This document shows, piece after piece, positions 4,101 through 27,111 of a stretch of 57,824 bases of DNA. Every line of letters begins with the position of its first letter. Position 1 is the first letter of the stretch. The notes beneath the pieces are model-generated. The model saw only the letters and a list, made by a program, of their open reading frames with translations. It ran no database searches and had not been told where the DNA came from. Origin of the DNA: Phoronis australis. Its lineage: Eukaryota; Animalia; Phoronida. The stretch is taken from NCBI GenBank assembly GCA_002633005.1, contig NMRA01000071.1:888970-946793 (forward strand). Reading direction: 5' to 3'. The position numbers and the translations under genes were made by a program.

Positions 4101-7100
4101 TTGTTTCTGAAAAGTGGCAAACCGTAAACAACTTATCAGTAAAAATATTAACACACCGTTTAAATAAACGTATGCTCATGTCCAACATTAAGATAGACGA
4201 AAACGTTCCTACCATTGGAATGAGGAGAACTTTATTATCATCTTGTATTATTGAATCTGAAAATCATGTCGGACTTTGGGGCTAGAGAAGATCTCTCCTC
4301 ATGTGTCATTTGGCTGGATTCAGATGGACACATGTACTTTTTGAAGCCTTTCTTTGTGACAGTAAACTTCAAAGCTTTTATGCATTCTGAATTTCCCTAG
4401 AGCATGCGTATACGCCAACATCGTACATGTAGGTAAAGCATGTGCAACAGCCTAGAAGGCATATTCAACAATAACGAGACACTTCCCAGACATACATTGA
4501 ACTTGATCTCACACAAATGATTTTTTAGGAAATAAGAATGTTCAAATTACCTCAGTCAAATTTCTGGTGTGTTTCCATGGGACCTGATGACGCAAAATCG
4601 ACCACTGACACCCAGCGAAAGAAGCAGTCCTCAAGTAAAATGAGCAGAGCAATTCTTAACCCAACCTTTTTGTCACGCACGCGTATTATCGTTTTTAAAG
4701 AGTCGATACGCTACGCCAATATTTTGCAGGTTTTCTTAAAAACGCATCTTAAGTTAACTTTTCATGTGAGTTTTCAGACAGCTTAGGAAAATAAATAGGT
4801 ACACGTTGAGGTGCATTGTGAGTTCTTTTAACGATACGATGGTTAAACCTAAACGGTGAGTGTGTCTTTTCAACAAGGCGTCGGGCCAATATGTTAACTT
4901 AAAGAATGTCTTTGAAATATCGAAGAAAGTTAGTGATTTTTAAAGGCATAGCTTTATTTAATCATATGTTTTAGTATTAACTTGTATAATTGATCGTCTG
5001 TGTAAAGTTTTTGTGCACGTGGTCATATCCTAAACTGTTAATAAGGTCAACAATTTTCTAGTCATTCCAACGACTCCACCGCAAACAACAATAACACGTA
5101 CTACGTTAGGCGTGGCCCAAAATTTGACAATGCTTGACGTCACATATAGCCAGGATAGCACGACACCTCCGTGGTCGCTGGTGACAACTACAGGTACATC
5201 TCATTTACATGTAAAAGGAGCTCACTAAAATACGACATTATATTGTGGCCTTCATCGCAAATACTCGCAAATGAGACCGAGGTGCGCTTCAAACTTAGCT
5301 GGCTTCACAGACAGAAGATTACGTGTGACATGAATATTAATTAAATACATATAGAAGACCGCTATATTATCATCGAGTACACGTGTGGCAGGCATATTAA
5401 TTAAATACATATAGAAGACCGCTATATTATCATCGAGTACACGTGTGGCAGGCTCATGCAGTCCGGATAAAAGTTATACTTGTCAATGGCTTCTATAACG
5501 CAAATATTCAGCTTTATTCTTGTGCATGTTTTCCAAATATTCCAAATATTCCTCCACCAGAGTTCAGCTGTCCACCGCGTCAGTAGAAAAAAAAAAATTT
5601 ATGACAAAAACACACATTACTTGTTACTGCTCAGGTACATTGTGTGGGGAGCGTTTCGTAACGGCGGCCTCTAACGAGAGACGCTTGCATCGTGAAAAAT
5701 CGGAACAGAAATAGTATTCTCATTTCTCTGTTTGCACAAAACGCTACTGCTGTTCATAATGACTCGACGTTACAGTCAATAATTTCTTCCTCCATCTTCA
5801 AGCATTACATATGTCTTCAAAAACGATCACGGGCATCTGGTACACTCATGGTGCTCATTGGTTCTTGGCATGGTTGTCATCCAAGCAGTCTAACTGCTAC
5901 GTAGCTGAGTGATTTATAAAAGCGTACTAAACCTGGTTTTGACCTTACAATATATATTAACAACGACTTCCTCATCTATCTCCCTAAAAAAATCTATAGC
6001 CTTCGTTACACTGCAAAACTGTGAAGTGAATTTGAATACTTCAAATGTGGAGAAATCGTGAAAACATAAAATGTCCAGTAAACTAACAAGTATGCCCTAC
6101 ATGAGGTAGGTCGTGGTATACTGTAGATAGCGCTTTACTACACTACAGGTACGATTTAAAAGAATAACAGAATAAAACCCGTAGGAAGGATCATAATATC
6201 CAACCTGCAACATTGACTGATTAAGTGTTGTCAGTTGAAGGCTGGAGTGCTTTTGTCGCTTACATGTAGGTGAGACGCTAATGTTACATGAACAAGGGAC
6301 ATAACGAAGACTATCTGCAATCACCAAAACAGTGTTTTGAATCCTTTTGGTTTCACAGGAAGTCTGTAATACTTATCTCTTCTTTTTAGTCTAAAAGTTG
6401 TTTTTTAAGTTGTCGCTTGTCTGCTTGCTAAGACATCAGAAGACATTACCGTGTACCTTTGCGTACATAGCTTCCTTAATCTTTCTTTTAGTCCAGTTTG
6501 TTTCACTGTTTAGCATCCCACTGGATAATGTATACAGTAGGTCTGACCACATATGCTCTGATACTCCTGATGAGCTATCACCTTCACTACAACTTTTCTT
6601 GTGTTCCGCAATACTCGGCAGCATTCCATTGGCATAAGCGTTTAAGCCTTTGCCAATACAGGTCTCACCACATACTCTGGAATTTGCTAGGTGACGTTCT
6701 TGTTTGCTTCAATAATTGTTTTTGTTTCGGTTTCGTCGTCCCAGTATGTTTGAGCCACTGTACACACTTAATTGTCTTTAGAATATACATCGTATGTAGA
6801 ATCTTCACACTACCCTTTTTGTTTATGGCGTTTATCATGCGAGCACCGNNNNNNNNNNNNNNNNNNNNNNNNNNNNNNNNNNNNNNNNNNTTTTTTGTTT
6901 TTTTTCTTAATCCGCCCGCTTTATTGTTATCAAAAGGTCCACAACAACATCAGGAATTCGAGCCCCCCATATAGGAGGCTGGGTGCGCGCATGTTTATTG
7001 CCATTCTGTAGTTTAAAAAATTACCGCAATCATATTCGTTCTCTTTCATTTCATTTCCGAATGTTTAAAGTGCAATCTAGTTTTCCATTCTACCAAACGG

Positions 7101-10100
7101 ATGCCAGTGTGGTACTTGAAACGCTCGTTTTTACTGGAACTTTGCGCTATTTTGTTGGGTTTTTGCTCAGCGTGATCAACTGTGTTTAAATGAGTCTCTT
7201 AAAGCGTGTGGAACACCACACACAGACAAGTGCAACGTTACCTACGTGAAAACTTCACCTATGAATGGAGTGGAAACCGTTCACATGAAATTGTCACGAC
7301 ACCTCTTACACCTCAAGTTCCACTTACTGTACTAGTTGGTATGCCGGCCATTAGCTTCGAACTTTAGGCAAGAGTTCACACTCAACACTTCTCAGCTCCT
7401 TACTAAATTGCTATATGACCACTTGCATGAAGGGCGGATTCTTCTTGATTGTTGCTGGCCGTCTTCGTAATTCTGAGTCTGACATGTTTGACCTGTCTGT
7501 TGTAGTTTCCAGGTGATGATAGTGTTCAGCTCTTAAACTGCTGGTTTTTAGTTGGTGTTTGATGTAGCTGACCTCATTTGCAGTAATCCGTTTCCGATAT
7601 CAGAGGTGGCTAGTTTGTTGTCTAACTAACACCACTTGCTCTTTGCCATGGCTGAGGAACTTTGACTTTAATGTCACCAGGCTGATATCTCTCGCGTGCC
7701 GAATACTAATTTTTTGTTCCATACTCGGTTTTAACTGGTCCTTCTGTAAGCTTCTGCATGCGGTGTTTTCTTTGAGGAAATTCTGTTCAAATCATACGAA
7801 ATACGAAGCGATTTTTGGGTTACGAGTTCACAATGTGGAGCTGCGTCCCGGCTGGACTAGAGCTAGTCCTCAACCACCAGCAAGCATACTGCCAACACTT
7901 AAGTTTCACTCTGGAAGCACCGCGTAACCTGAGATTAACGTTTTTTGATGAACTGATGGCCAGGAGAATCCAAAACTTATTCTCTATTAAGAAAACTCTC
8001 ACTGTATTGACTACTGTAATTCCGACGAAATCAAAGGAGATAAGAGCGGTTAGTTCCTAGCATCAAACTCATAGAAAAATGCAGCGAACAACACTTAAAG
8101 CTGGGATGGACAACTTGGTTTGCACATTCAAATTGAATGATAACCAGGAAGAATTCATCGAAAAAGCAATACTTCCACAAGGAAAGGGTACGGAAAAAGG
8201 AGATCATACTCAGCAAACGCTGTGCCCTTCTCGTCTACACGAAGCAGATCATACTCGGCAAACGCTTTGCCCTTCACGTCTACATGAAGTAGATAATACT
8301 CAGCAAACGCTGTGCCCTTCACGTTTTTTATGAACTCAATAAAACTGGTTAGCACATGCAAGACATTTAAAAAAGAAAATAATGCTGTAGGTAGCTCAGA
8401 AACCTTGAGATGAGAGTACTGAGTAAAATAAAAGGAAAGACAGATACAAGGAAAAGAAGAACGTCATCTATCAAATCCGCTAAGATTGTGGTTACTCCCA
8501 TAACAACGATGAACTAAGGACATTGGATATGAGGATTGCTGAACACAAGAAATGTCGCAAGGAAGCCACACTATTTAATGTGTAGCATGTTGTGGCATGT
8601 GTATTGAAAGGGCCACAACATCTAAAAGGGTAACACCCAGATACTTGACAGTGAAACAGTATAGACTAAAATTAAGATCTAGGAAGCTATGAATGAAGCT
8701 ATGTGACAACGTCTTCAGGAAGACTAGCAACCTGCCAACCAACACGCGGCTTCCCTTTTAGGAAATAAGTGGTCTAGCGGCGAGAAAGCTGGACTGTCAA
8801 GCGAAATATCCATGGACCAAATCCCATTGCGCACCAGGAAACGTATAATTAGATAGCGCAATATAAGTACAACAAACCATCGTGCTGGTTCTTTTTAAGA
8901 ACTCTGTAACGCCAGAAGATGACAGGAGAAATGACCGACCGGAACGTCGTGTCAATGTAGCACGATACAGGTTGGTTTAAATGGACCAACGTACTTTACA
9001 ATTGATCTTATTTTATCTCCGCCGTAAGTAGGTTTCACAAAACCATTACACTTGTGTGTATAAAGTCAACAAATCAACGGACGAATAAATTACGTTGCAT
9101 TAGCGCAATCTCACGTGTTCTCAAAAAACTTGCAATTGGTCTTACAAAACGACAATCGGCATCCTAAAGTGCAACAAATTTTGAATTGAAGGAGACAACA
9201 ATTCATGAAAAAGACGGTCTTGCATGCGAGTATTTGCGTTATTTTAGATCATTGTGCTCATATTTTTACAAATAAGAATGATTAAAAAATTGCCCCAAGC
9301 CTACACATACTCTTTTGCTTGATCGTAATTTATAATAAAACACTATTATTTCAACCATTTCTATGATATGAATGGTTGCTCTCAATCCATACAGTTCTAT
9401 AACATGAATGGTGGCTCTCAATCCATACAGTTGATAATATACAATCCTGACGTTTATGATGCTTTCTTAGCACTGGTCAATTATATATGACTAAAAGAGG
9501 CTTTCCGAGAATTGTGAGTAATTAACATTGATTATCATCTTGATACGACTTCATGTCAACCAAAGGGCATGTGTGTGTAGACCTAGTATCTGTGCTGTGA
9601 CTCTGGCATGTTCTCAGGATGTTCAACTACAATGGACGATCTTTGAATCAGGGCAAGGTCGAGACCCGAGTGGAACAGTTACAATGTACATGTACACCGA
9701 CATGCAGTACAATCCAAAAGTAGTGAGACAAAGCCACGTAAGGTTCTCCATCATGACGGCTGGCTGGATGCCAAAATTAACTGCGAGAGTCTTTCCTCAT
9801 GACCGTCAACTAAGGAGCAGTATCAGCATAATTAATATGATGCCTTAACCTCCGTGGACTTTATGAAAACTGTCGCACAAAATACTATTGCCTCTTAGCA
9901 TTTTTGACGTTCACGCAGTTAGCCGTCATGACGGGAAAACGGTATTTTGTCTGATTACTTTTCTCTCATACAATGCATGATCAGCCAGTTTGCACAGATA
10001 ACTGTGTTCACTTATCGGGTGACGGCTATCGCACAGATTATAGTGTTCACGTATCCGTGACGGCTATCGCAGAGATTACAGTGTTCACGTAATGGTGTCA

Positions 10101-13100
10101 CGCAATAACATATTTAGGGTAGTCACCTACAGTATAGCGCCCTGATCGTTCGTGTTCGTAGGGGTGAAAAAGAATGCTCACCTCGCCTCCCTTGAACCTG
10201 TTTGGAGCTCGGTTTGTGAAATAGTGGCCTTCTTTCGGTCGACCGTCGCAACAGCACTGTTCTAGTCACGTGCAATCACCAAAATGTAAAGACGTAAAGT
10301 AGATCTCGTAACCCTGCTCAATGCCAAATAATGCCAAGTGAATCAGCAACATTGCATGCAAATTAAGATAAGATTTGGAAAATATCTGTTTCGATTTAAG
10401 GAAGTTCAACACAGATCTGCAGTTGGGTTTTTGAACATATCTGCGAAAATATGATAATAACTGAATTAGCAAAAAATCGTTACATCTGCACACACGTGTA
10501 CATGTCGAGAGGGTGATCCTGGGGGAAAACGGTTAAATTTACATGGGTGAAAGTGATACCTAAATAAATTCATGATTGAATTCCTGTCAAAAACAGGTTA
10601 ACATCGTTACAGGATTTCAGTTCTGTGATTAACGATTTTAGATAAATTTCCCTCTGTGTTGCACTATACTTCCCGCTGTGTTGCACTATATTTACCGCTG
10701 TGTTGCACTATATTTCAATTAATTGATGGTGTTTGCAATGTGAAATAAGATCAGGTTTTTGTAACTGGTGTGGATAATCTAACGGAAAAATTTCTTCTTT
10801 ACGTCACATTAAGTTCGGTGGTGGACAATGTACTCTGCAGCCTTTTTAAGTGCAAAAAAGCACCTATCAGGTTAGAGAACTCAGGTGACTTTCAAAATAA
10901 AAAAACAATGAATACAGCCAGTAACGTATTTTCGTCTGGCACGACGTCGACGCCCGCTGAAGGCCGGGCGTGGCTAACGGACCGCTTTCGACATGGACAC
11001 GGACGATCATGGGTGACTACATTGTAGTTGCTACGGTGTGAACAGTCACAGTAATCGGTTTGATTATTTGCAAGATGACGAGGATTATTGAAACAGGCGC
11101 CTGATTCCTTGCGTTGGCGTAGTTTTTCACCTAGTAACATAATCATGTGTAATTTTGTAGTAGAGAACCAAACACCATTAACGAGTAACACGACAGCGCC
11201 GTCTGTTGAGCCAACCACTGAAGCAGGTAAACAATTTGACTGACTACCCATACGAAGCTTGGATTTCCATTAGTTCAAGAAGTTTTAAATTTTTATTTTG
11301 GCTGAGTATACACACGTTATCAATAGAGAAGAAGTTAGACCGATCATGCGGAGTATTTATCGCATGAACTCTTAAGTAACGACAACAATATCTTCTACAA
11401 TCAGCTTGTTTTCAACATAGAGTAAGAATTATGATTCAATGATGTAAATATAGTATCGAGTTGCATTTCACCATGTTACTGAGCAACGGGTGATGGATTC
11501 CTCAAATATTGTTAACTATTTCCTATCCCGGGACGCACCATGTGCTTCATAACAGCGCCTATAGGTTTAAAACACGTAGTCATTGTTTTTGGTAAAATAA
11601 GTTTTCTTGAAAATAGGCATTGGATAAAATGGATGAATAGTTTCGTTATCGCTTATATTTTCTCATCCAAAAATTTCGCATTACCGGTATATTTCGATTT
11701 TAATAAGTCTTATTTCTTCAAATATCAAAACTGCAAACTCTGGACTTACATGTATGTAACATTCTTGTTGTCGACTGAATTTGAGGATTTACTCTACAAA
11801 GTTTTCAAATGGAGGTCGGGGCTACTTTTTCTTTCAGTTGAAATCCAGGCCCTCTCTGCAATGGAGTGTACTGAACAAATGCTTTGTTTACATGGTTCCT
11901 TGTGTACATGGCATTGATAAAGGTATTTAAAGTAGAAAGTCGCAATGTGATTACTTATTCAAGTAACAGCCGCAAGGACGGACTGTGGTTGAAGATGAGC
12001 TAATGTAATTATTTCTGCCCATAAAAGAGTGCTGTCTTACATGTTTAACATCTGTCAGGCCTACCAGGATACACGGCACAGCCCGGCTATTGTGATGACA
12101 TCTACGTCCTCTTCGCCGCCATTGATAACACGTCAAGCCCGCAAGAGTGCGCCAAAATCTGTGATAACATACCCAAACTTTGCAAAGGATTCGTCATGAC
12201 ACAGAATTCGCTGTGTAAACCGATACACGCCGTTTGCAAGGGGAAAATCTTATACAGTGAAAACAACGAACATACATTGTACATCAGAGGTATAATACTC
12301 ATATAAGTTGTCGGGCATAGGCACTAGTTTGTGGAAGGTGAAGGTCGCATTCGAATGGGAGTCTTGGCTTTAGGGGTAATTACTCCGGCAATAGCTAGTT
12401 CTAATACTCAATTCACCACTTTATTGAGTGTTTATAATTCCGGCGCATCGTTTACGAAATATTTTGTTAATTTCAAGTACGTCATGTGTGCAATCGAGTG
12501 AGATTTATTTTAGATGGTCATGCTTCTATAGTGCACTTTATGTTTTAGGTAAAAGGTGTTTCATTATGATCGTCTACACACACTTTTTGTTTCCAACGGC
12601 GTCTCCCAGCATTGGCTTCATTTAAAAATGGTTTAAATGTGCCATGGTTCGGGCGCTTCGTCCCGCTTCATCCCAAATGCATGCACATTACGGAAGGCAA
12701 TCACGAGCTCAGTGCTTAATGTTCTATAGATTACTTCTTCAGAGAATGTTAGTTTGCGCCTCCTCGTGGACTAAGCCGGAAGTTTGTCACTAACTCCCGG
12801 TGTTTACTGGTACTAACCTGAGGGAACTAAAGATGAGATGCAACGTTTTAACTGGCTTGAAAAACAGTGCAGCTGTTACTCTTGTGCTGGCAATTGATTC
12901 AGAAGTGCATTAACATTGTGTTACAGAAAACTAAAAAATACAGGGTGTCATAAACTATTGATGGTGACTCATCAATTTACTTCTTACAGCTGCATGTCGC
13001 TCCTTTAAGCAGAATGAAAACGATAATCCGCGAAAGCTGCCTTCCACTTTCAAAAATTGGGTCTCGTAGTTTCCTTGCAATGCTACTATTCCAGTTCCGT

Positions 13101-16100
13101 AGCGAAAATGAATATCGAAACCGTCATCAAAAATGCTTTAGAGTTCATTTAGATCGGCCAACTTCGGAACTTGTGAATTTGAGTATGGCGCAGCTACTCC
13201 AGTTGACTTTACTTGGTAACGGAAATGAAACCCTATCACCGTAAGGACAATTCTGACATTGATTTGCAAAGCTTAATTCGATTTTCGTTTCTTTAGACAG
13301 CAAAAAGCGATATGCAGTTTTAAATAAGTTTAAAGTGAAGATGTTGTACGCTCATGACAATATTCTTGAGAAGCTAAACCGTGAGTGATATTTTGAGTCA
13401 CACTGAACTATGAACTGTGTCATGCAATGTTGCACAAGTGTTTCTTTGAATCATTTGATTGCTGTAGCCTGGGTATCCTGACCACCAATATAATTGTTAT
13501 GGTCAGAGTGTCCTGGTATCGCCAGTCTATACCTCACCGGTATATCGATCCAGTCATTCAATGTTAGAGTAATTATGTTTTGGCGACGTCTTGACATGAA
13601 CCAGAAGAGAACCTGGGACCACTTGCGTGTTGTAGATTGAATACTGGACTAGAAAACATACACGTAGAGGTCGAATATGGACGTTTTCAGTTGTACCCAG
13701 AATTTCTGCTACGCCAGTGCATAAGAGCTTTGTTATACAGTTTACATGTCACTATTTAGGAGAAATTTCTGTTTTAGATCGTCGTCGTAGGAGGAGTATT
13801 GATTTAACAGAGGTAAGTATTGATAAAAATGCTACAAGAATGTAATGAGTTTCAGGCTGCAACAACGTTCTATAGAAAGATTCATAGAATACTCGCACAG
13901 TCGCGCTATCTCCTTCACCCAATTTGAAAGATGGCGTGAATTCAACATCATTATTTGCGGTGAATAAATATCGTATTTAATTTTGAAAAATATCATTTAT
14001 TGTTCAACAACGCCATTGATACGTGTTGTTTTAAGATATAATTAGAGGAAGCGTTTTTACTCAAGAGCGATCTCATCAAACTTCTCATTTCACTTTGCAC
14101 AAGTGCCATTATCTACAGGATCAGTAGAGTGAACTTATCCGGCGAACATTTTTAACCGATATCAACAGGTATAAATTAACATGTTATATTAATTAAAACT
14201 AGAATTCTTGTGATTCCCTGCAACTGTTCTACTGTACGGGGCACATGTAAAATTTAATCGCTCTTTCTGCTTCGTCTATGGATGAAATTTGAAATTACAT
14301 GTAATATCTGTATTACACTCTGTCAACATGACAACAACTTTATTTTGGTAATCTATTAAAAGTGCTGGTTTAGGTGTAGTTTTGGCAGTGCAACAACTTA
14401 ACAGCAGACCCAATAGAATGATGCTAAATATGACATAAGTTACGAATCGTGATCAAAAGACACATATGAAGAACGTTCAATGTGTGTACAAGTAACCAAC
14501 AGGTTGTCAAATCATGCAGCACCCGCTTATTGTAATTTCCGAAAATTTTCATAATTGCAGGCAACTCAAATATTGCGGGACAAGCGAGATACCCTTACAA
14601 ATCAGGTATGTGCATGTTATTCTACAAGTATGTGTTGTAGAAAGTACCTGACGAATGCATGTCCAACATGTACGACAACGAAGACAGGCAATACGTTGCC
14701 ATAAAGGCCTATGGTTAAATATTTTTTAAAAAAAATGATGACATGTAACAGGCAAAACAAGCATGTCGGTCGACTGCAAGTTGATTTTCATGTAGCACAG
14801 TATAGATATGTCCAGTACAGATATGTCCAGTACAGATATGCCCAGTACAGATATGGCAAGTACAGATATGCCCAGTACAGATATGGCAAGTACAGATATG
14901 TCCACTACAGATATGCCCAGTACAGATATACCCAGTACAGATATGCTCAGTACAGATATGGCACGTACAGATATGCTCAGTACATATACATGTATGTCCA
15001 GTACAGATATGCTCAGTACATATACATGTATGTACAGTACAGATATGCCCAGTACAGATATAGCACGTTCAGATGTGCAGTATGCAAGTCGTACGTAATC
15101 ATTCTAATCTTCTGACAAATCTCCATCGGCTACTTTAAGGCATTGTGATTTTCCAAACTTATAAAAGTTTCAATAACGATTTTTCTTAATTGTGGAAACT
15201 GATTCCTAAAGAATTTCGCGCAGCTATATACATGTACATGTATGAATGTCTTGGGCCGACAACTGAGATACCGGATGTCTAAACGAAGACTTTAAAACAG
15301 AATTTAATTACTGATATTTATTTATTTTTGTTTGGGGAACTCGAAATATGACACACGAATCCTTGAGTGTTGACCATAAAATAGTTCAAACTTGAAGTTA
15401 CCAGCAGCTTAGGTTTTCTAGAAACCAGTGTTTACAGAACAAAAACATTTTTACTTGATTTATTACTTACAATTGTGCTGTGATTATACAATCATCAAAG
15501 AATCAGAAATTTTGCACGTATTTTCTGGGTGTAATTGCTCACGCATACGGTGGGTTATAATGGACAATTGCTCTTCTAAAACGGCAGTGTGAAAGTACAT
15601 GTACTTGACGAAGGATGACGATACTGTACATATCACTATCCTGTACTTTCGGCAGACAACGCCCAGCTACACCGACTACACACTTCGACGCAAGTACTCG
15701 CAGGAATATGCCAAACTTCCGCCACGTGATCGCGTGGCTTTGGCTCATCAAGAGGAGGACTTCATAGTTGGTTGTTCCTGGAATGGCGAAGATTGTGATA
15801 TGTCGTAAATATCTTTTGTTTTCGTTTCTGTATTCCTTTACTTGGTTTGGCGCGGAATTGCATACCCCAAAGACTAGTGTTAGCACGCACGTGTGCTTGT
15901 CATATTTGGCAAATATCTATGTCAGTGAGTTTTACATTATTTTCATTTTCATAAAGTAGCCTGGCACCAAAAACAATGTATTGCACATCAATTCAGCAGG
16001 AATAGTTCCATGACGCAACACTCCGTTCTTTTACCTGACACTGTGAGACATGTAAATGTGCAAGAATTAACCTGTGACGTCAAATTACAAATACAATTGT

Positions 16101-19100
16101 ATTCCACGTACGCCAATCTTGGTACACATCAGATTGATCGCCTGAGTTTCTAGTTTTCTTCAACAATACGCCAAAGAACGATGCGAAAGCCTCATGGGCA
16201 CATTAAATTATCGAACAAAACAGTTGTCTTGTATTCAAAATGGCTGACACTCTAGTATTTGCCGGTGAATTTCCTGCTAAGCGCGCAGCAAAATATTTGC
16301 TTTTTGGCGGTATATTGCGGACCACAAATTAAACGTTTTTTGATTGTGATGAAAGAGAACCTGTGCGGTGTACTGTAATTTTGAGTCGACAAATCGCTCC
16401 GGCTTTGAGATACAAAACTCGTTATCACTAAGATACCTTCTAGGAATGTCCCGATGTGTGAAGTAACTTTTTGGAATGTGAGCGCGATCTTAGCGCTCGA
16501 CGCGCCGAAATTTTTCTCGAACACTGTTTCCCAACACCAGACTAATAGCGTACCCGAAACCGAACCACAGGATTGTCCATGTTGTGTGTCAGTTCTGTCT
16601 GAATGGCCTTTTAAGACGCTGCAATTGGACTGGGGTACTCACCTAGTCATCCCTGGTGTCGGTCGCGGTAGAATATTTCGATGCAATCTTCAAAATTCCC
16701 GATTCAAAAATGTCCGCATCGCAACACAGTAATGCATGTAAAGGGATTCCAGAAAAACATGGTTTTATTTTCGGCTTCTCACACATCATACTGTCGGCCA
16801 TATTGAAATCCAAAATGGCATCCACATTAAGGGTCAAATCACGTGTTTCACAGGTTTTTGAAAGAGTGCAAAACTTACATCTGGCGTCAAATTTCCACAC
16901 TTTCTCCAAACAGTGAGGATTCTTACTTACCAGTCGTATAATGGCGTGCAGTCGAGTCCTTGTTTCAGTAATTTCCCATCACTAACCGCTGAAATGACAC
17001 CCACCTGGTCTTCTTCAATTACAGTTTGATTACAAGTGAAAAACCGGAAACGCATTATAATGCCTCCATAGGTTTCTAAACATCATTGCATTCATCCAAA
17101 TCACACCCATGTCAATACATAAGCGACTACGAAGTACAAGTGTAACCCCTATACCCGTTAAAATGTCCATTGATGCCCCTCCTCCGTCAGACGGCTCATG
17201 CCACTCGGAAGCTCTGTTTAAGTAAGTCGTCGTTTTATGTTTTATTCACAGTACCATCTACCAGTTCCAGACTTACAGACTTGGCAACTGTTTCACGTTT
17301 AACCATGGTCGACAGAACACGACCGTGAGGAAGATCAGCAAGTCAGGCCCAGACTACGGTAATGTTTAGTTAACTGAACAACATGAATGATAAAATTACT
17401 CTGTAAGACAGTCGCTGTGAAACTGTAACCTGTGTAGGTGACTACTTGTAGGGTAATATAACGCTGTGAGACTGTCTTGCGTAGGTGACTTTGTCTATGG
17501 TGACACTCTGATACATCGTACTGAATACATGTAAGTGACTAATGTGGGGCTATGTCCAGAGTAGGTGATTGCATTCATGGTAATACACGGTGACTACACA
17601 TAATGCATGCATGGTGATGTGACGATGTGAGGCTTTGCCCAGTGTTGGCGTCTGCATCCATGGTAATATAACGCTGTGAGGCTATATACTGCGCAGGCGA
17701 CTATATGTGCAATATATCGCTGTGATTCTATATACTGCGCAGGTGACTGTATATGCAATATATCGCTGTGAATCTATATACTGCGCAGGTGACTGTATAT
17801 GCAATATATCGCTGTGAATCTATATACTGCGCAGGTGACTGTATATGCAATAAATCGCTGTGTGTCTACATGTATATACTGCGCAGGTGACTGTATATGC
17901 AATATATCGCTGTGAATCTATATACTGCGCCGGTGACTGTATGTGCAATATATCGTTGTGAATCTATATACTGGGCAGGTGACTGTATATGCAATATATA
18001 GCTGTGAGTCTACGGTATATACTGGGCAGGTGACTGTATATGCAATAAATCGCTGTAAGTCTTTAAACTGCGCAGGTGACTGTATATGCAATATGTCGTT
18101 GTGAATCTACATGTATATACTGGGCAGGTGACTGTATATGCAATATATCGTTGTGAATCTACATGTATATACTGGGCAGGTGACTGTATACGCAATATAT
18201 CGTTGTGAATCTACATGTATATACTGGGCAGGTGACTGTATACGCAATATATCGTTGTGAATCTACATGTATATACTGCGCAGGTGACTGTACATGTATG
18301 TGCAATACTGATATCGCCGAGACAATGTATTGCGTAGGTAACTTTTTGTACGGTACAATACATGTAGCACTGTAATACTTAGTAGTTGCTCGAAGATGAC
18401 TACTTTTATGTTAAAAATTGGTCCAAAATAGTCCAGTCTGCTGTTATTGAACAACTAAATCCTCCCACACTTACAAAATTAACTGCCTACGATCCTGGCA
18501 CGCGTGCATGCAGCTGTCATTTAGTTGAAGCTGGCGCCACAGTTTGACGTGCTTTGAGAAATGACTACAAGTTTATAACGAGAAAGGCGAGATCACTCAA
18601 ATCGTTTTGTACTTTGATCGAGCAAGACACTCGCGAAAAAGAAAAATCGCGAGAGAGAAAATGCTCTGGACCTTATTGGAGTAATGTGGCAAAATATCAG
18701 CCATTTAAATGATAGTTTTTGACTGTAATTTTAAATTGTGGATGATAGTCACTGTTTTATACCCATAAGCGAAGATGACTTGCCTCAGATTATTGGTTTG
18801 CTTCAACTGATCACCGTCCTGTTGTCCTCTAGGGCTTACATTGACTCTCAACATTGAACAGTACGAGTATGTGCCATCCATCACGGACACGGCAGGGATA
18901 CGTGTAGTGATACATTCTAAGGATGTCATGCCCTATCCAGCTAATGACGGAATAACTATTGCGCCGGGATTTGCGTCGAATGTAGGCATTAAACGAGTAA
19001 GTACAGTAGTAAGCATTACACGCATAAAATGCTGTTTTTTGTCACCTTATCGGTTTTAAAATGAATCGATGCTCACATTATCAGTGTTTTTGTTTGCTGT

Positions 19101-22100
19101 TTTGTTTTTTGTAATTAGATATGTCCCATTGTAAGTCTTTCATTGCTCCCTTTAATCATATTTAATTACATATAGTGGCGCAATGGCCAATCTCACAGCA
19201 AAGAGATCCTGATTAAACAACGTTATAAGAAGTAAAAAGAACTTCGTGTTTTTATTAACTATTCAATTACGACTGCAGGTTAGAAACGTTATAGGCAAAT
19301 TTATGTATTTAGTAAATTAGAAACAAAACTATCCATTATCATTTAGGAAAAGTAGAAAACTTGTAAAACCTTTTAAAAACTTTAAAGCATTCTGCCATTA
19401 ATTGAGTGTGACCAATGCCTTTTAAGGAACGTGTAGCAAGACATAAAGATCTGTTCACAACAAAACGACAGTATCAATAACATGATCAAGTTACATGTCA
19501 CAACTGAGATCTCCAAAACGCTGTTACAATTTTCAAAATTATTTACTTTTAATTATGTGCAACTCACCAGCCCCTTTAATGCAATAATGGAACATTTTCA
19601 AACAATTACTTTGATCAGAACGTACATGTATTGTAGAAATACAATGCCGACCAGTCTTTTCTGAAGTGTGATATTCTGAAGCTAAGTTTGAGCATTCTTC
19701 TGAGGTCCTACATTAACTAAGACTATCAACGTTCTAGATGTTCTGACATTGCACTGTTTCAGAGGGTAATTATCAGAAAGCCCGATCCTTACGGTAACTG
19801 CACCAGGCCAGAAGACGCCCTCTACAAGCCCAAATCCTACGGTTATTCTGTCAAGGTAAGAACTGCTCCCTACTGCATCGTTTTTTGTATTATAAAAATG
19901 CGATTTCTATCAAAAAAGAAAAGTTTCCTGGACCTTTCAAATCAATCCCTGAAATTTAAACATGTCATCTAAGTGTGCGCTTGATTTCAAAAACGTAATG
20001 CAAATAATAATACGGCTTCGGAAATCAGCTCATGAAGTTGTCATTCAAATTCGATTTCATAAAGAGAAAACGACCGTGTGGATGGGTTGTACATGTAACT
20101 ACACTGAAAGGCAGAGCATCTTCATAGTTGTTTCTAATACAAGCATGTTTTCGTTTGAAGGCTTGCTTAATGGATTGCCTCCAACGTTCGGTGAAGGAGC
20201 ATTGTGGGTGTCGCTATCCGTCACTGCTGTCTGATGAAGAAGTTACCCGGATGTGTGATGACATGCCTGGAGCTCATGACGGTAACTGTTGTTTATTAAT
20301 TTGAACATTGAAATGCTTCCACGTTTAAACTGCACTGCTGTAATCTCCGAGCCCACACTCGCATTACGCTCAGACTCCAAACCTACATGTACCGCGCCGC
20401 ATGCCAGAGTACACATTTCTAAGTTTGCTTCAAGCGTAAATGCAACCAATCACTTTTCGAGTACGGAAATTATTTCCTGAACGGAACTATTATCCTTGGG
20501 GGAGGGAAGGGGCTGTTACCAAAAACTCGTGTACTGTATGTGTATTCCAATAATTGACTAATTGAAGCGAAACTGCAAATGATTTTTTCAGATGAGAATT
20601 GACCCCTGCACATGCTCCACGGGAGTAGCACTTGTCGTTCACCTACTATTTGAAATAGAACATAAATAATAATAATAATAATAATAATATAAATAAATAT
20701 ATATCTTCACTTATAGAGGATAAAAAACAGACCGTGTGAAACTTATCTACCACATGGTTCTCGAAATTACAATAAATAGATAAAAAAATAAATAAATAAG
20801 ATGAACAATGATATGTACAGATGAATGAAAAATGAAATAAACAAGTTAATTAATATATACAATTTTTGACATGCATGCAGATATACAGTTAATTAGATAA
20901 TAAAAAAGTTATTAAGTTACTTCTAAATGCACGTTTAACAGTAATTGATTTGATACCTAATGGTAAACCATTCCAGGCAATCACTCTTTCCAACGAAGAA
21001 AACGAAGAGACAGTTGTTTTTATTGTCTACCGCCTTTGCACATCCGCTTTGCACAACAGGTTGTAATTTGTGTAAAATTGTGTATTGGTTGTACTATGAC
21101 ATTCTACAAATTACTTTGGAATTCCTGCAATAAAACATTACCATATCCTGGTACATGTACTCAGATTTTGGTCTATCTTTATGAAAGATTTGGGACAACA
21201 TTATATAACTTGTAACGACGTCACGTGCATTGAGATAATATCTTATGTTTCAGAGCTTTGCTTCCAAAGAATTCACAAGAAATACATTGAGGACACTCTA
21301 GGCTGCTATTGCCCGGAAGCATGCGAGTAAGTAAGCAAAAGATAAAAGTAAATTTAACCTTCTTGCGCGCCATAATTTGGTCACATCACGTTAGTCTGAA
21401 CTTGCTGATTTCTAAGAACACAATTATGAACTGAAGATAGTTAACTGGGCTAATGTACAACGCAATATGTAGTACCCTTAGCCACAAACATAGTGATACA
21501 TAATTTGATAAATAGCTCTTTTAAGTATCTAAGTACATTGTTTGGAAGTCTAACCGATTTCGTAAGTACACTGTAGGATCTATATAACATGTCAATGAAT
21601 TGGGGGTAAATATTGCAGTTTGTTTTCTTTGCAGATTTTGAGAAAACCTAATGGTTGAATTTTTCAAAGTGGCCGACAGTCAGATGGAAGGGAGATAAAT
21701 CTGCGTTTTGAGAAAGTCCAACTCATTCATAATGCCCCTATCGTAGATTGTTCCATATTGAGTCTCCTTAATAAATCGTCGGCATTACAGTAACGTGCCC
21801 AAGGGTGGCCTTTGAGTGCCGTCGTCTGTTCATTTCATTTCATTTCAACAGGTATCTTAGCGTACATAAATGACAAAACTTTCGCCTGTCTGTTTTAGGG
21901 ACGTCTCATATCAGATGGAGGTGTCTACTGCAAAGTGGCCTGCCGTGAATAATAGGGTAGATGTCTTGTTTATTGCAACACCCTTTTAACCTATTATTTT
22001 AAGCTCAGTTCCATAATAACACACACTACTCGTATGAAGGCCTCGTCTTCACTTTACGATATGTACATTAATACTTGGAGACTCAAAGGGAAAAGTGTAA

Positions 22101-24911
22101 TTTTCATTCTAAATTTTGGGCGTTTTCTACATTTTCACACATCACTAGACGTTAATTTCAACCATTTCCACTGTGCTATTTTGTTTATTCAGACATTGGA
22201 CAAAACAATGTGAGTTGGTGCACCGAAAACTCCCAAAGTATTTTGTTCTGGGACAGCAAAACTTTTATTGAAAGATTGGACTCATTTTATGCTGGTTATA
22301 AAGGGTGTCTCAAATTATATCTATGATAATTATGTTGAATATGACTAAATCGAAAAGGGGGTTATGCATTTAAAGCGGGTACAAACATTCGTTCCACCCA
22401 AAATGTCAACTTTTGATTTTTACCCCTACCGATATGCATGTTCATGTAAAAGACCATGCTGGAAACATAAAATGTGACGAACTCGTAGAAAGTTGTCGCA
22501 TCACAATAAAGGCCCCGAAATCACCTACATAATATAACAACAAAAGACCATTTTGAGGCCAATTTTTTCAAGGTAAACATTATAAATCAAAAGTTGGATT
22601 TCCCGTTGGACCTAGGAGCTTTATGCAATCTTTACTTGGAGTTAGGAGCTTTATGCAATCTTTACTTGGAGCTAGGAGCTTTACGCAATCTTTACTTGGA
22701 GCTAGGAGCTTAATGCAATCTTTACGTGGAACATAGATAATTTTCACGTTGCGTATAAAAATGTTGTACACTAATTTACTCTGATTAAAATGACGTCATT
22801 ACATGTCTAACAGTCAAAAGTATGATGATGGTGTATCCATGGGCATACGTGTTTGTCAATGACTTCATTCCAAATATTAACTGATGAGGTTCATCTTAGA
22901 CACATGTAGAACAGTATATGACTGGTCTTATACAGTTTGACGACGTGTCAAAACATGACGACCCCACTTCCCCAGTAGCCTCACTTCACGTTTTTTGAAA
23001 TGTACCATACCACAAGATGGCTACAATTTAATTAAATAAGACATCGCAGAAAAAATACAAAATCAAAACTTAAGGAGGATAGCATTCATGTTGGCTAATG
23101 GTTATAGTAAGAACTGCGGACTGTGATTTCAACACACGGTGGATGAGTAAAATTTCTACCCACTGGCTCGGTTATCTGACAGAATCACTTAAATATGTTT
23201 AATTGTTTTCGATTTAATCCAACTTAAAATGTGTCCCTAGTCTTGAGACACACTTTACATACGTTTTTATTGTTAACTAACCTTCGAGAAAACTACCATT
23301 GAGAAATAAATGCACGTGCAGACACCCAATTGTGCATATCAAGTTTATGAGTACAAAAGTTTGACGCCAGAATAGTTATGGCCCACATAGATATGGACCA
23401 CATAGATATGGCCCCCATAGTTATGGCCCCCATAGATATGGCCCCCATAGATATGGCCCCCATATATATGGCCCCCATAGATATGGCCCCCATATATATG
23501 GCCCTATAGATATGGTCCCCATAGATATGGCCCCCATAGATATGCCCCTGAAAGTGCCGTGAGCTTTAAAAAAATAATTGCAGGTGGTCTGATACACGTT
23601 GTATCAGACGTGCGCAGGCCTCGCATGTGGGCCCATTGCACTGATCACCTGGAAATATTTTTATGCTTTATTGATATATGCCGTGAGCTTGCTACATGCA
23701 CTCTTTTACTTATGTATGAAGGAAAAATGGGAGAAGAGAGTTGCTAACAAGAACCCTGAGTTGAAAAAGTTGATTGAATCAGGGACGGAGTTTGCAAAAG
23801 CTGAGTAAGTAATTCTATAAAGTAAGTCTGATCATCATTGCTATTTACGTTAATTTTTAGAATTGTATTTTTCAAAATAACAGCTCACATTTCAATGAGA
23901 ATTTATGGATGTTTTTTTCAGACGTAAGGCAAACCACGTATACACACGCGCACGCACATTCAGTAATCTAAATCACACGGTTGTTTAGATGAATATGCAA
24001 AGTTTCCCAGGAGAATTTTTCCAACAAAATCTCACGTTTGTTCAATATATATTATATATGGGGGAACCTGACAACTTAATACAGTCTCAGTCTGCCCAAA
24101 ATTAATTACTCAAACTTCTGGCGAGCATCGGATAACATAGTGCCGGTGATATAGGCGCGATTTAACATCGTTTGGGGTCATAGGAAATGTGAATATATGG
24201 GTCGGGGAACAAGACTCCTGCTGTAATGTTCCTGGATAAAGCACTAAACGCAGCAATAAATGAATAGTCATCACTGTTATATGTAGGTCTATGCATTCGA
24301 TAAATTTTGTTTCATTCGGTTTGCACACATTTATCTTTCATATAAGGCCTAGATTGTATGCATTAAGTTGTTTTCTTAAGTGGTAATGCGTGCTTGCCTG
24401 GACATTTTTTCTTCGAAAACTGTGGTCTACCCTTAAGTCGTCTTTGATACTCCGGTCTTCCACAAACCTTCAAATCGAAATGTGATCTAAGTTTAGCTTC
24501 ACAACTCGCTTGTACACGTGTATGTAAATGTAGACACATTCCCATCGACTTATTCCTCTCAGTTTAACGTTTTCAAAGCTTTACCAAATTCGTGTCATTG
24601 CCTTAATGTGTGTTTTGCATTGTCTTAGGAACAACTTCGCTCAACTTAAGGTGTTCTATCAAGAACTCAACCTCGAGAAGACTGCACAGAGTCCTGCTTA
24701 TCCAAGGGAAAACCTTCTGGGTGATTTGGGTGGACAGCTCGGTCTTTGGGTCGGTCTATCCATGTTGACACTGTGTGAGTGTATAGAGTTCCTCTGGATT
24801 GTTGGTGTCATCGGATTTCAGAACTGTAAGTCTTTCGTGAAACAGAGGCGAGAACGAGGCGCCACCGGTGAGGTCAAGAAAAAGGCAAACGGAAAGACGG
24901 ACGATTACTGA
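990..24911 (+). CDS. DEG/ENaC (amiloride-sensitive Na+ channel family) subunit with mucin-like and 2x PAN/Apple insertion; 5'-partial, 17 exons, about 790 aa in window
   Basis: Exons 990-1175, 3423-3884, 5062-5193, 11161-11226, 12059-12289, 13297-13380, 13778-13812, 14561-14605, 15656-15804, 17252-17358, 18833-18996, 19763-19855, 20161-20281, 21254-21326, 21899-21956, 23722-23804, 24629-24911. All are AG/GT bounded and join in one stop-free frame. Family motifs: FIVGCSWNGEDC, GNCFTFN, GLTLTLNIEQYEY, GIRVVIH, PYGNC, CxxxCxQ..CGC, CPEAC, KWP, LKVFYQELN, TM2 GDLGGQLGLWVGLSMLT. TM1 and the HG motif are not in the window. Confidence 0.85.
1440..2447. mobile_element. Degenerate TIR element with subterminal tandem repeats
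   Basis: cgccaaagggtccttaaacga vs reverse complement of tcgttttaaaacccttggcg; ttattcaacgcg-type motifs inverted at the two ends. Confidence 0.5.
1599..1700. repeat. 21-bp tandem repeat, about 5 copies
   Basis: ttattcaacgcgtactaatgc variants. Confidence 0.9.
3423..3884 (+). CDS. DEG/ENaC gene exon: mucin-like stalk plus PAN/Apple domain 1 (phase 1-1)
   Basis: acaacag/ ... aaag/gtgat; Thr/Glu/Pro-rich run followed by GDCPGNDI...SLTECAIICASNHACLSFVF...CFPKNSTC, a 6-Cys PAN/Apple pattern; 462 nt. Confidence 0.85.
5062..5193 (+). CDS. DEG/ENaC gene exon: Thr/Pro-rich linker (phase 1-1)
   Basis: ttttctag/ ... acag/gtac; (V)IPTTPPQTTITRTTLGVAQNLTMLDVTYSQDSTTPPWSLVTTT; 132 nt. Confidence 0.75.
5334..5453. 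repeat. Exact 60-bp tandem duplication
   Basis: atattaattaaatacatatagaagaccgctatattatcatcgagtacacgtgtggcaggc x2. Confidence 0.92.
5750..6690 (-). mobile_element. Second decayed Penelope-like fragment (GIY-YIG and 3' end), inverted
   Basis: ORF 6436-6624: IAEHKK...SGVSEHMW...LNSETNWTKRKIKEAMY, preceded by a YIG-like segment; the reverse complement of 5761-5825 is similar to 8893-8955. Confidence 0.6.
6837..6993. mobile_element. MITE, CATGCGCGCA family, spanning an assembly gap
   Basis: catgcgagcacc ... ggtgcgcgcatg with tttat on both flanks; contains an N-run. Confidence 0.6.
6849..6890. other. Assembly gap (42 N)
   Basis: Run of N in the sequence. Confidence 0.98.
7860..8960 (+). mobile_element. 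Decayed Penelope-like retroelement (RT C-terminus, GIY-YIG, 3' end)
   Basis: Broken frames give F..LN..EEFIEKAI, KKNVIYQI..DCGYS, RTLDMRIAEHKK, QILDSET...KI.EAM; boundaries approximate. Confidence 0.6.
8201..8325. repeat. 45-bp tandem repeat, about 3 copies, inside the Penelope-like remnant
   Basis: agatcatactcagcaaacgctgtgcccttc... at 8201, 8246 and 8291. Confidence 0.9.
9368..9432. repeat. Short tandem duplication
   Basis: atgaatggt(t/g)gctctcaatccatacagtt x2. Confidence 0.8.
9990..10092. repeat. Tandem repeat of about 38 bp
   Basis: gtgacggctatcgcacagattatagtgttcacgta variants, about 2.5 copies. Confidence 0.8.
10654..10715. repeat. 22-bp tandem repeat, 3 copies
   Basis: ctgtgttgcactata(c/t)tt.ccg. 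Confidence 0.85.
11161..11226 (+). CDS. DEG/ENaC gene exon: short Thr-rich linker (phase 1-1)
   Basis: ttttgtag/ ... gcag/gtaaac; (V)ENQTPLTSNTTAPSVEPTTEA; 66 nt. Confidence 0.75.
12059..12289 (+). CDS. DEG/ENaC gene exon: PAN/Apple domain 2 (phase 1-1)
   Basis: tctgtcag/ ... agag/gtataa; (G)LPGYTAQPGYCDDIYVLFAAIDNTSSPQECAKICDNIPKLCKGFVMTQNSLCKPIHAVCKGKILYSENNEHTLYIR; 6 Cys with a CxxxC core; absent from the ORF track. Confidence 0.8.
13297..13380 (+). CDS. DEG/ENaC gene exon: basic, probably helical segment (phase 1-1)
   Basis: tttctttag/ ... aaacc/gtgagt; (D)SKKRYAVLNKFKVKMLYAHDNILEKLN; 84 nt. Confidence 0.7.
13778..13812 (+). CDS. DEG/ENaC gene micro-exon with furin-type site RRRRR/S (phase 1-0)
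   Basis: tctgttttag/ ... agag/gtaagt; (H)RRRRRSIDLTE; converts phase 1 to phase 0 as the downstream exons require. Confidence 0.75.
14561..14605 (+). CDS. DEG/ENaC gene micro-exon with furin-type site RDKR/D (phase 0-0)
   Basis: aattgcag/ ... tcag/gtatgt; ATQILRDKRDTLTNQ; 45 nt. Confidence 0.7.
14797..15075. repeat. 15-bp minisatellite
   Basis: gtacagatatgccca variants; source of the spurious QYRYA and STDM ORFs. Confidence 0.95.
15656..15804 (+). CDS. DEG/ENaC exon: end of finger domain, beta3
   Basis: ttcggcag/ ... tc/gtaaat; TTPSYTDYTLRRKYSQEYAKLPPRDRVALAHQEEDFIVGCSWNGEDCDMS. Confidence 0.9.
17252..17358 (+). CDS. DEG/ENaC exon: GNCFTFN motif
   Basis: ttcacag/ ... tacg/gtaat; TIYQFQTYRLGNCFTFNHGRQNTTVRKISKSGPDY. 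Confidence 0.92.
17405..18315. repeat. 44-50 bp minisatellite with a divergence gradient
   Basis: atatactgcgcaggtgactgtatatgcaatatatcgctgtgaatct; clean copies at about 17680-18310, degenerate copies upstream. Confidence 0.92.
18833..18996 (+). CDS. DEG/ENaC exon: palm/beta-ball
   Basis: cctctag/ ... cga/gtaagt; GLTLTLNIEQYEYVPSITDTAGIRVVIHSKDVMPYPANDGITIAPGFASNVGIKR. Confidence 0.93.
19763..19855 (+). CDS. DEG/ENaC exon: start of thumb domain
   Basis: tgtttcag/ ... caag/gtaaga; RVIIRKPDPYGNCTRPEDALYKPKSYGYSVK. Confidence 0.92.
20161..20281 (+). CDS. DEG/ENaC exon: Cys-rich thumb
   Basis: tttgaag/ ... gacg/gtaact; ACLMDCLQRSVKEHCGCRYPSLLSDEEVTRMCDDMPGAHD. Confidence 0.9.
20660..21130 (-). 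mobile_element. CR1/L2-like LINE 3' remnant
   Basis: Minus strand at about 20910-20980 reads IAWNGLPLGIKSITVKRAFRSNL (WNxLPxxIK...F..L RT C-terminus); possible (ATT)n tail near 20665-20690; boundaries approximate. Confidence 0.45.
21254..21326 (+). CDS. DEG/ENaC exon: end of thumb
   Basis: tgtttcag/ ... ga/gtaagt; (E)LCFQRIHKKYIEDTLGCYCPEAC. Confidence 0.9.
21899..21956 (+). CDS. DEG/ENaC exon: beta10 and WP motif
   Basis: tgttttag/ ... agg/gtagat; (E)DVSYQMEVSTAKWPAVNNR. Confidence 0.88.
22606..22730. repeat. 30-bp tandem repeat, 4 copies
   Basis: taggagctttatgcaatctttacttggagc. Confidence 0.92.
23372..23548. repeat. 15-bp minisatellite
   Basis: catagatatggcccc, about 11 copies. Confidence 0.93.
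23722..23804 (+). CDS. DEG/ENaC exon: knuckle
   Basis: tatgaag/ ... ga/gtaagt; EKWEKRVANKNPELKKLIESGTEFAKA; phases 0-2 fit both neighbours. Confidence 0.8.
24629..24911 (+). CDS. DEG/ENaC last exon: beta11-12, TM2 and short C-tail
   Basis: gtcttag/; NNFAQLKVFYQELNLEKTAQSPAYPRENLLGDLGGQLGLWVGLSMLTLCECIEFLWIVGVIGF...KTDDY*. Confidence 0.95.
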
Positions 24912-27111
24912 GCACACGACACGTGGTTTACTACTACAATTAAGCGTGAGCTTTGTAGAAGCTAGAACTTTGCGAAAACGTGATCACGCAAGTCTTCGCG
25001 AGATATTACTGGGTATTACAAGCAAAGCACAAGTTTGGACTTGCTAGCATGATCGCCAGATTCTTGCGTCTACGAAAGTCATCATAGTTTGAAAGTCAAT
25101 GACCTCTTTCATCTTTAGCAAAATGGTAAAAGTAAAACGTGAATATAATGACGCAATATGTCGGGCCGAAGTAATAGCTTGCCTGCGTAATGAGCTTCGA
25201 ATTAGTTCAGATAACCCTTAATATATCTTTCTTGTTAGGAGCGGAAATCAAACGGGGAGTGTTTATTAAAAAGTTATGTAACACTCAGGTGTTAGCCTTG
25301 TAATGCCCTTAAAGAATTGTACCAACAAGTTTGTTGCACATGTAAACATTATTCTTAGAGATTGAGCTTGGAAAACGCATTGTCCTGATACTTATGCAGT
25401 TTTTAACGCTTGTGTTGCTTGCAGTTAGGGGGAACATTCCTTCAATAAACAAAATACGTGTCCCTAACGATACGGTGGTGATGGTGAGTATTTTCAGGTC
25501 GAAACTGACCTCAACGTTTATCGCCCAGGCATTTCTCAACAAGCACCCGTTGTGTAATTAAACGCACCGGGCGTTTTTTTTGTAGCTACATAGCGTTTAT
25601 TCACCTCTTGTCAACAGGAACGTTCATGGATACTCTTGCCGAACTTAGAGTTGCAGTTGTCAAATAAGCAGTAGCACGTTGCATCTCACTACGGCGACTG
25701 GGAACCACGCCACAATGTGCTCATCAAAAGGATAGTAAACCCTGTTTTGGTTATTAACATAATCTTAGTTCTGTCACCTGCTAACGTGTTATTGGTGTCA
25801 CACTTGAGGGATAAAAAGATTCAACAGAAAGCTTGTACTTTAGGCGTTAGAGATTGGATAGTAAGTTTCTTTCCCTACAGTTGTTGTGCAACTCGCCTAA
25901 AGCGTGTACGAGACTTTGCAAGGAGTTTTTAAACTTTGCTCCTAATTCTTGAGGGCTATCGATGGTTAGAGAGTATTATTTTATTTCAGAAAACTCATTG
26001 GTTTGATAGGCTTTTGGAAATCTCTTAACAGGCCAAAACAGGCTTTAGTATCCTTTTTACTATAATCTGAACTCTCCCATATTACTTTTTGTGGTGAATA
26101 AAACTATAAATTCAACTTAGTGAATTACTAACAAATACGCAAAACGTCTTCCATTTCGAACATCCGGTTCCTCCGTAGATTTCACATCGACTTATGACCT
26201 AAATACATCACAGCCTTACAAGTAGCGCCACCATCTGAGAGGAGGTCAAATACAGCGTAATAACATGGATGACTGTAATGCCAGTGTGTCCTCTGATGCT
26301 TACAAAATACTTTGTTTCGCTTGCATAAAAATAAGGTGGGGCAAGTGTATATTCATTATATATTCCATACTACTATTGGCAAGTGATGATCGGAGAACAG
26401 GGGTCAGTACTGCAGTAGAATATTAATAGTAACAGGCCTACCTATTAGGAATAGTAACTAGTAGTTGACAATGCTGAGGCCCACGGCATTGTCGTATGTG
26501 TCTCATTCGGTAGTGGCTGCACATCTTCTGCCAGGAATGTAACAAAATTGAAGTGGAGTTGCATCAGCTGTGTTTGGTTAAAGAAGACTCGTCTGTGTGT
26601 AGTCTACAGTTCAGGTTACAGGGTCAGACCCAGTGTACTGGTCAGCTGGCCTTGTTTACTATGTGAAAAGTGGGGTGAGATAGCACTTACATGGCCAGGT
26701 AGAATGTTTGCAAGCTTTCACAAGCCAATGATGTTGTTTGTTGGCGTGTAGGCTATTTCTCAGTGTATGGTTCAATTTTAGTTGTGCGAGTTGGGTGCAG
26801 AGTATGCATAGATCTGACCTAGCAGGGAAAGCCTGAGAAGAGCTACATAACCTGCAATTGTGTATTCGCCATATCCAAGAGGAACAATTCACTTATCAAC
26901 TAAAATAAAAACTGTTGTTTTAGTGTAAACAGTCTGATTTGATGTGTTAGTATCAAGTTCCCAGGCACTACTCTGCATTATCACAGGATACGCGTGCCTC
27001 TTGCTGAATAATATGTACCCTAAACAGGGATTATTGAGTCAAATTCTTTCTCAGAACATTAAACGAACCTTATTTTTGATACATTCCGCTGTACCCACAC
27101 AGCTTGTTTCC

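Follow-up and report, generated by a model that had tools for sequence, protein, structure and literature searches.

Paired furin motifs on two micro-exons of a Phoronis australis DEG/ENaC channel gene and the enrichment of such motifs in the finger loops of related channels

The stretch of Phoronis australis DNA analysed here (the window: 57,824 nucleotides, contig NMRA01000071.1, positions 888,970 to 946,793 of the forward strand) contains what, judged by its sequence, is a spliced DEG/ENaC channel gene. Two of its micro-exons each encode a furin-type R-x-K/R-R motif in the finger insert of the channel. We show that motifs of this type are enriched about 20-fold in the finger loops of related channels and that the enrichment is confined to this loop. 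The finger-loop furin motif is widespread across the family and apparently unreported so far, the window gene being one example in which it lies behind a PAN module. The exons of the gene are listed below with their support; X1 is a run that bears no RNA label on its record and that we guess to be RNA because of the GT-AG joints in its contigs.

990-1175, + strand: candidate Ser/Thr-rich (46%) exon, phase 1-1; from splice sites and frame, no RNA coverage
3423-3884, + strand: mucin-like stretch and first PAN domain (PAN1, 6 Cys), phase 1-1; Pfam PAN_4 E 9.4e-6, slightly below the curated cut-off; X1 partial
5062-5193, + strand: Thr-rich exon, phase 1-1; X1 joint 3884>5062, 3' end from the splice site
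11164-11226, + strand: candidate small Ser/Thr-rich exon (63 nt), phase 1-1; from splice sites and frame, no RNA coverage
12059-12289, + strand: exon of the second PAN domain (PAN2, 6 Cys), phase 1-1; Pfam PAN E 0.005, Atlas PAN 0.95; X1 from 12095
13297-13380, + strand: possible cassette exon with KKR, 84 nt, AG/GT, phase 1-1; skipped in X1
13778-13812, + strand: micro-exon 1 with furin motif 1, 35 nt, AG/GT, phase 1 to 0; X1 joints
14561-14605, + strand: micro-exon 2 with furin motif 2, 45 nt, AG/GT, phase 0-0; X1 joints
15656-15804, + strand: finger helices alpha2-alpha3 and beta3; Pfam ASC profile 126-166, family HMM iE 2.8e-5; X1 joints
17252-17358, + strand: core exon (GNCFTFN); X1 contig, family HMM
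18833-18996, + strand: palm / beta-ball exon; Pfam ASC E 1.3e-8, X1 contig
19763-19855, + strand: core exon, start of the thumb; X1 contig, family HMM
20161-20281, + strand: thumb exon; X1 contig, family HMM
21254-21326, + strand: thumb exon; X1 contig, family HMM
21899-21956, + strand: core exon; X1 contig
23722-23804, + strand: knuckle exon; X1 contig
24629-24911, + strand: last coding exon with beta11-12, TM2, G-x-S filter and stop; Pfam ASC E 1e-16, PDB matches to FaNaC, ASIC and ENaC, X1 contig

All four core exons scanned matched Pfam ASC, two of them above the curated cut-off. The family HMM matched seven segments in order, each with an iE under 0.003, and the last coding exon contains TM2 with a G/S-x-S filter. 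Together with the PDB matches, these results bear out the sequence-only reading in its view of the gene as a DEG/ENaC channel with its sites in the finger insert. As the finger exon corresponds to positions 126-166 of the ASC profile, the sites lie just before helix alpha2, the place taken by the GRIP domain in ENaC. The finger exon, searched against the PDB, returned chance matches to Nav beta-1 and nothing else, and word-index searches for homologues with single exons gave no match, which is weak evidence.

A 1,987-nt contig of X1 (depth 58.6) joins 12095-12289, 13778-13812, 14561-14605, 15656-15804 and 17252-17358 through the joints 12289>13778, 13812>14561, 14605>15656 and 15804>17252. From record position 531, an X1 contig of equal length and depth runs from 18833-18996 through 19763-19855, 20161-20281, 21254-21326, 21899-21956 and 23722-23804 on to 24629-25480, so that the 3' UTR extends at least to 25480; the joint 17358>18833 was read from the continuous record positions of these same-length, same-depth contigs. 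The PAN exon, both micro-exons and the channel core form a single open frame that ends after TM2. The micro-exons, which the sequence-only reading had predicted and wished to see in RNA, are therefore real and spliced in, provided that X1 is RNA as presumed, and the spliced frame places one R-x-K/R-R motif on each of them. The residue ahead of the arginines, previously given as H, has to be corrected to D, since the PAN exon directly precedes micro-exon 1 in the transcript. Likewise, the KKR formerly assigned to the preceding exon falls in the stretch 13297-13380, which has plausible splice sites and is missing from the X1 contig. The idea that splicing could switch off the second site stands with regard to the frame, as the 45-nt exon is phase 0-0 and could be skipped, but no skip is listed in the X1 contigs, which as assembled contigs cannot reveal rare isoforms. 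Micro-exon 1 brings the phase-1 modules back into frame 0 and can thus never be skipped on its own. The raw-read runs X2-X4 barely cover the gene; single reads lie on four downstream joints, and no micro-exon joint is listed. Over 24629-25480, X1 and the window differ in 39 letters and 12 gaps, mostly in the 3' UTR and with few changes in coding exons, which suggests that the species is polymorphic or that X1 stems from a distinct population.

Motif 1 (RRRRR/S, codons 13780-13794) and motif 2 (RDKR/D, codons 14576-14587) are 15 residues apart and are the sole R-x-K/R-R sites within the 694-aa modelled ectodomain. In 10,000 shuffles of the 413-aa segment from PAN2 to TM2, which preserve composition and not charge clustering, one site occurred in 19%, at least two in 1.6% and a pair 5-50 residues apart in 0.35%. 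The close pair exceeds chance. Site 1 starts a few residues past the last strand of the PAN domain and lies 57 residues from the beta3 landmark, adjoining the cluster of family sites at 59-84. Site 2, at 42 from the core, is nearer to it than 52 of the 53 family sites. Micro-exon 2 also carries the Asn of an N-glycosylation sequon that is completed by the next exon and is located at P5' of motif 2. At 14561, X1 has A for G, which changes Ala to Thr within the 15-mer.

For the family survey, R-x-K/R-R was counted from FPxxTxC (+22) to 25 residues before GNC and compared to shuffles of the same segment. Used as the query of a full HMMER search, the last exon had 1,420 matches at E up to 0.001, 150 of which were listed. 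The first set comprises the 30 of these 150 that have all landmarks, picked blind to sites (the 120 dropped were mostly fragments); the second comprises 55 of 87 homologues of the two-site protein P0086, mostly from echinoderms, after 32 without landmarks were dropped. Overall, 41 of 85 relatives carried a motif in the finger insert, with 53 sites where 2.4 were expected, and 11 of the 85 had at least two; the rest of the ectodomain held 5 sites versus 5.5 expected. By set, there were 16 finger sites versus 0.81 expected in the first (11/30 proteins with a site, 4/30 with at least two) and 37 versus 1.63 in the second (30/55 and 7/55), compared to 2 versus 1.39 and 3 versus 4.15 in the remaining ectodomain. 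Carriers include Owenia, Haliotis, Bursaphelenchus, Diadema, Saccoglossus, Ptychodera, Glandiceps and Branchiostoma. At P1', 30 of the 53 sites have Ser or Ala and 2 have Leu, Ile, Val, Phe or Met (background 17% and 18%), and P2' is Thr, Val, Leu, Ala or Ile in 38. This pattern is the preference of proprotein convertases, and the two sites of the window, with SI and DT at these positions, are consistent with it. Sites frequently follow a Ser/Thr tract. In proteins with several sites, these are 7-37 residues apart, plus one gap of 112, and no sequence is common to the spacers across classes. On a FastTree tree of 85 rows, the site label changed 21 times, at least 11 of these changes being forced by strong branches, while shuffled labels changed about 29 times on average; the label is therefore neither a single inherited event nor random.

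Further motifs in finger inserts are found in the supplement of PMC10507113, within the portion seen, for Hoilungia, Lingula, Owenia, Platynereis, Macrostomum, Trichinella and urchins. The Platynereis motif in this portion precedes what by eye resembles a PAN module. Like the window channel, C. elegans MEC-4, UNC-8, DEG-1 and ASIC-1 have large finger inserts, and the first 400 characters per line of the same supplement contain basic motifs in those of ASIC-1, UNC-8 and DEG-1. The main text of PMC10507113 mentions neither furin nor cleavage, and the accessible parts of PMC9822975, PMC10148893, PMC10424705, PMC11026163, PMC2154353 and PMC9234716 do not mention furin. Full-text searches, whose coverage leaves out most subscription papers, turned up no publication that treats furin motifs in finger loops across invertebrates. 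Where excerpted, PMC13488063 describes proteolytic activation as restricted to ENaC.

Among the relatives listed, no orthologue of the window gene was found: the best 45 blastp rows against the spliced model show 29-39% identity, and in both a quick tree and the FastTree tree the query has no well-supported close relative and sits on a long terminal branch of about 1.0. Pfam applied to 49 of the 150 relatives detected arrays of LDLa, kringle, SRCR or PAN ahead of the core in some, with PAN in two, Ptychodera P0099 (XP_070544098.1) and Saccoglossus P0052 (XP_006821452.1), both of which have TM1. As in the window channel, PAN and other modules occupy the finger in these two proteins, and the core resumes at about ASC position 128-139 in such hemichordate, echinoderm and amphioxus relatives and at 126 here. 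In contrast to the window gene, the Ptychodera and Saccoglossus module channels lack furin motifs in the insert and carry arrays of LDLa and kringle; they are not orthologues. A number of DEG/ENaCs of 900-1,600 residues (P0033, P0052, P0098, P0099, P0114, P0133, P0214, P0221 and others) carry arrays of LDLa, kringle, PAN, SRCR, CUB, TSP1 or FA58C-type modules before the core; we take these long proteins to be from hemichordates, echinoderms and amphioxus, some names being read from accession numbers.

The reading we favour, with slightly better than even confidence and on the strength of the sequence features, is that a convertase opens the finger loop and that the mucin-PAN insert is predicted to become a stalk anchored at one end. 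A proprotein convertase would cut the loop during maturation at site 1, perhaps also at site 2; the principal cleavage would occur at RRRRR/S, with site 2 serving as a backup or for trimming. The insert, until then a loop held at its two ends, would thereby turn into a stalk that carries PAN2 at the tip, while the N-terminal piece would be retained via TM1, beta1 and a conserved disulfide whose pairing we assume. The C-terminal piece left after the cut is predicted to have about 382 aa and 43.5 kDa before glycans. The 15-mer would be a by-product, and any gain in current would come from loosening of the finger rather than from loss of a bound inhibitor. The loosening of the mucin-PAN antenna by cleavage, offered by the sequence-only reading as an alternative, is thus the one adopted here as a prediction. 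Borne in this way on the end of a mucin stalk, the PAN module would qualify as a candidate sensor of a ligand or of the matrix. Counting against this reading are the module-bearing relatives that have no site, the position of site 1 abutting the PAN domain, and that of site 2 near the core with the sequon at P5'. Large module inserts occur with no furin site in P0098, P0099, P0083, P0214, P0230, P0234 and P0235, and many module-rich relatives can therefore carry their modules with the loop unopened.

A release of the 15-mer as an autoinhibitor by cleavage at both sites, with an increase in open probability as in ENaC, we regard as unlikely. The window channel shares the superfamily and the core with vertebrate ENaC alpha and gamma, and it has two convertase motifs, 15 residues apart, between the positions of alpha1 and alpha2. 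A profile of 75 relatives has human alpha- and gamma-ENaC as best matches among PDB structures, and the basic motif in its consensus is aligned with the distal sites of both, although this alignment spans a loose region, owes its fit to the motif and is not proof of homology. Moreover, the current of MEC-4(d) rises about twofold with chymotrypsin (PMC2391253, in part) or plasmin (PMC8223032), so that protease effects on an invertebrate member have already been published. Against an ENaC-like release stands the structure of the region. The GRIP domain lies between alpha1 and alpha2 and includes a disulfide-stapled P3-P4 hairpin, as described in sections of PMC6197857, whereas the 83 residues between PAN2 and beta3 of the window protein contain no Cys, and hence no GRIP hairpin or disulfide; mucin and PAN modules occupy its finger insert instead. 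By eye, 46 residues separate the distal cut from the beta3 Cys here, compared to 78 in human alpha-ENaC, and the distal site is placed much closer to alpha2 than in ENaC. The gamma residues W229 and H233, required for binding of the inhibitory tract according to an excerpt of PMC13488063, correspond to Thr and Lys in a gapless by-eye alignment of these two pocket residues, with a Tyr one residue earlier. Inhibitory peptides of ENaC contain Pro (PMC6197857, same sections) and the tracts have 26 and 43 residues, while the window tract has 15, no Pro, and one position that varies between the window and X1. Finally, of the 41 relatives with sites, 30 have just one, from which no tract could be excised, and the spacers of the others are unrelated across classes. 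Diadema XP_071488689.1, Ptychodera XP_070558969.1, Saccoglossus XP_006815229.1 and Branchiostoma XP_078617329.1 resemble the window channel in having at least two motifs between a low-complexity insert and alpha2, but they have no PAN, and their spacers of 7-37 residues are unrelated to the window 15-mer. The original proposal of a lineage-specific, convergent copy of alpha-ENaC gating is not supported, as sites occur in about half of the relatives examined and GRIP hairpin, pocket residues and proline tract are absent.

The design may exist elsewhere among invertebrates. The urchin proteins P0086, P0160 and P0169-P0171 are orthologous DEG/ENaCs in which two furin motifs 24-25 residues apart enclose a Pro-bearing core. 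This core reads IPDPxTG in the five orthologues, and 7 of 20 spacer positions are invariant compared to 1 of 40 just upstream. Judged by its sequence, the urchin spacer would make a more plausible ENaC-like inhibitory tract than the 15-mer of the window, and the conserved pair counts in favour of an ENaC-like release. The AlphaFold model of P0086 (mean pLDDT 79) places both sites in segments below pLDDT 50, and the spacer shows a weak island only (block 271-280, mean pLDDT 57), from which docking is not evident.

The presence of enriched motifs in annelid, mollusc, nematode, echinoderm, hemichordate and amphioxus channels suggests, as far as sequences go, that cutting of the finger loop goes back much further or evolves very easily. 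A more far-reaching reading, which we hold only tentatively and consider doubtful, is that cutting of the finger loop by convertases represents an ancient and widespread control point of ENaC-like channels, that invertebrate channels including that of the window release a paired-site tract to open, and that the vertebrate GRIP domain was built on a pre-existing loop. If this were true, proteolytic gating would not be a vertebrate invention, and the urchin IPDPxTG channels would be the sharpest test case. In the available part of PMC8791634, paired polybasic tracts are tied to land vertebrates, GRIP is called unique to ENaC, and only ENaC-like proteins are ascribed to non-vertebrate chordates. 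Nineteen C. elegans DEG/ENaC subunits or isoforms gave no current when expressed (PMC10424705, seen in part); whether loop cutting bears on such silent invertebrate channels is speculation.

It is also conceivable that the motifs are uncut, or cut to no consequence, being basic patches in a loose linker. This would agree with the 21 label changes, which indicate that sites come and go, with the polybasic tract of human delta-ENaC, which stays uncleaved according to part of PMC8791634, and with the steric and glycan caveats at the two window sites. Yet the roughly 20-fold, finger-confined enrichment with convertase-like P1' and P2' residues makes this reading distinctly improbable, as do the pair probability of 0.0035 in the window protein and the urchin group, in which four of five tree neighbours keep their sites even though the flanking insert has diverged.

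In the reading that we favour, the upstream modules and TM1 are taken to belong to the same protein. Both six-Cys PAN modules are recognised, with Pfam scores under the curated cut-offs, and the joint 3884>5062 is present in a second X1 contig. No RNA connects PAN2 to any upstream exon, the X1 contig beginning at 12095, and we infer that the upstream mucin/PAN1 exons are part of the channel transcript. No exon with TM1, the HG motif or FPxxTxC was detected within the window. The best N-terminal profile match (iE 0.14) was far away on the minus strand, and the hydrophobic stretches listed as candidates all fall outside supported exons, so that both were rejected as TM1. By analogy to the two PAN-bearing relatives, which possess it, TM1-beta1-beta2 most likely lies upstream of the window. 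The range 886-989 is an open frame in which a short hydrophobic stretch precedes the 990 acceptor; this stretch, which may represent a signal peptide or have arisen by chance, would become part of the 990-1175 exon if the alternative acceptor at 886 were used.

That the gene encodes an EGAS-like one-pass subunit, in which a signal peptide replaces TM1, one cut sheds the entire mucin-PAN part as a secreted pro-piece and the remaining half subunit needs a partner, is improbable: it would fit the missing TM1/FPAVT exon, the 886 acceptor and the C. elegans precedent, where EGAS proteins likewise join shuffled modules to an ASC core, EGAS-2/3/4 show a hydrophobic leader with EGF repeats and no TM1 in their first 400 residues (PMC10507113 supplement, in part) and small DEGL proteins occur in the same neurons (PMC9478639, in part), but the window may begin inside the gene, the 990 acceptor makes its exon phase 1-1 like the others, P0099 and P0052 both have TM1, the runs examined contain no RNA over 591-1180, and the Atlas gave no usable match for 884-1174. 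Shedding of the whole ectodomain was likewise downgraded once the TM1-bearing PAN relatives appeared.

The window contains a neighbouring gene on the minus strand (34834-52708), which looks like a one-pass receptor: several of its exons encode Cys-rich, EGF-like repeats, with one weak Pfam EGF match, and a hydrophobic stretch followed by a long tail lies at 34834-36024. Inside this gene, a THAP domain (E 2e-8) and a domain resembling P2RX7_C (E 6e-5) are encoded by opposed ORFs at 45947-47283, which are probably a transposon remnant. Most mapped reads are attracted by short interspersed repeats at 23568-23680, 6900-6995, 9920-9966 and 1-196, and the window holds several minisatellites, the longest at 17683-18296.
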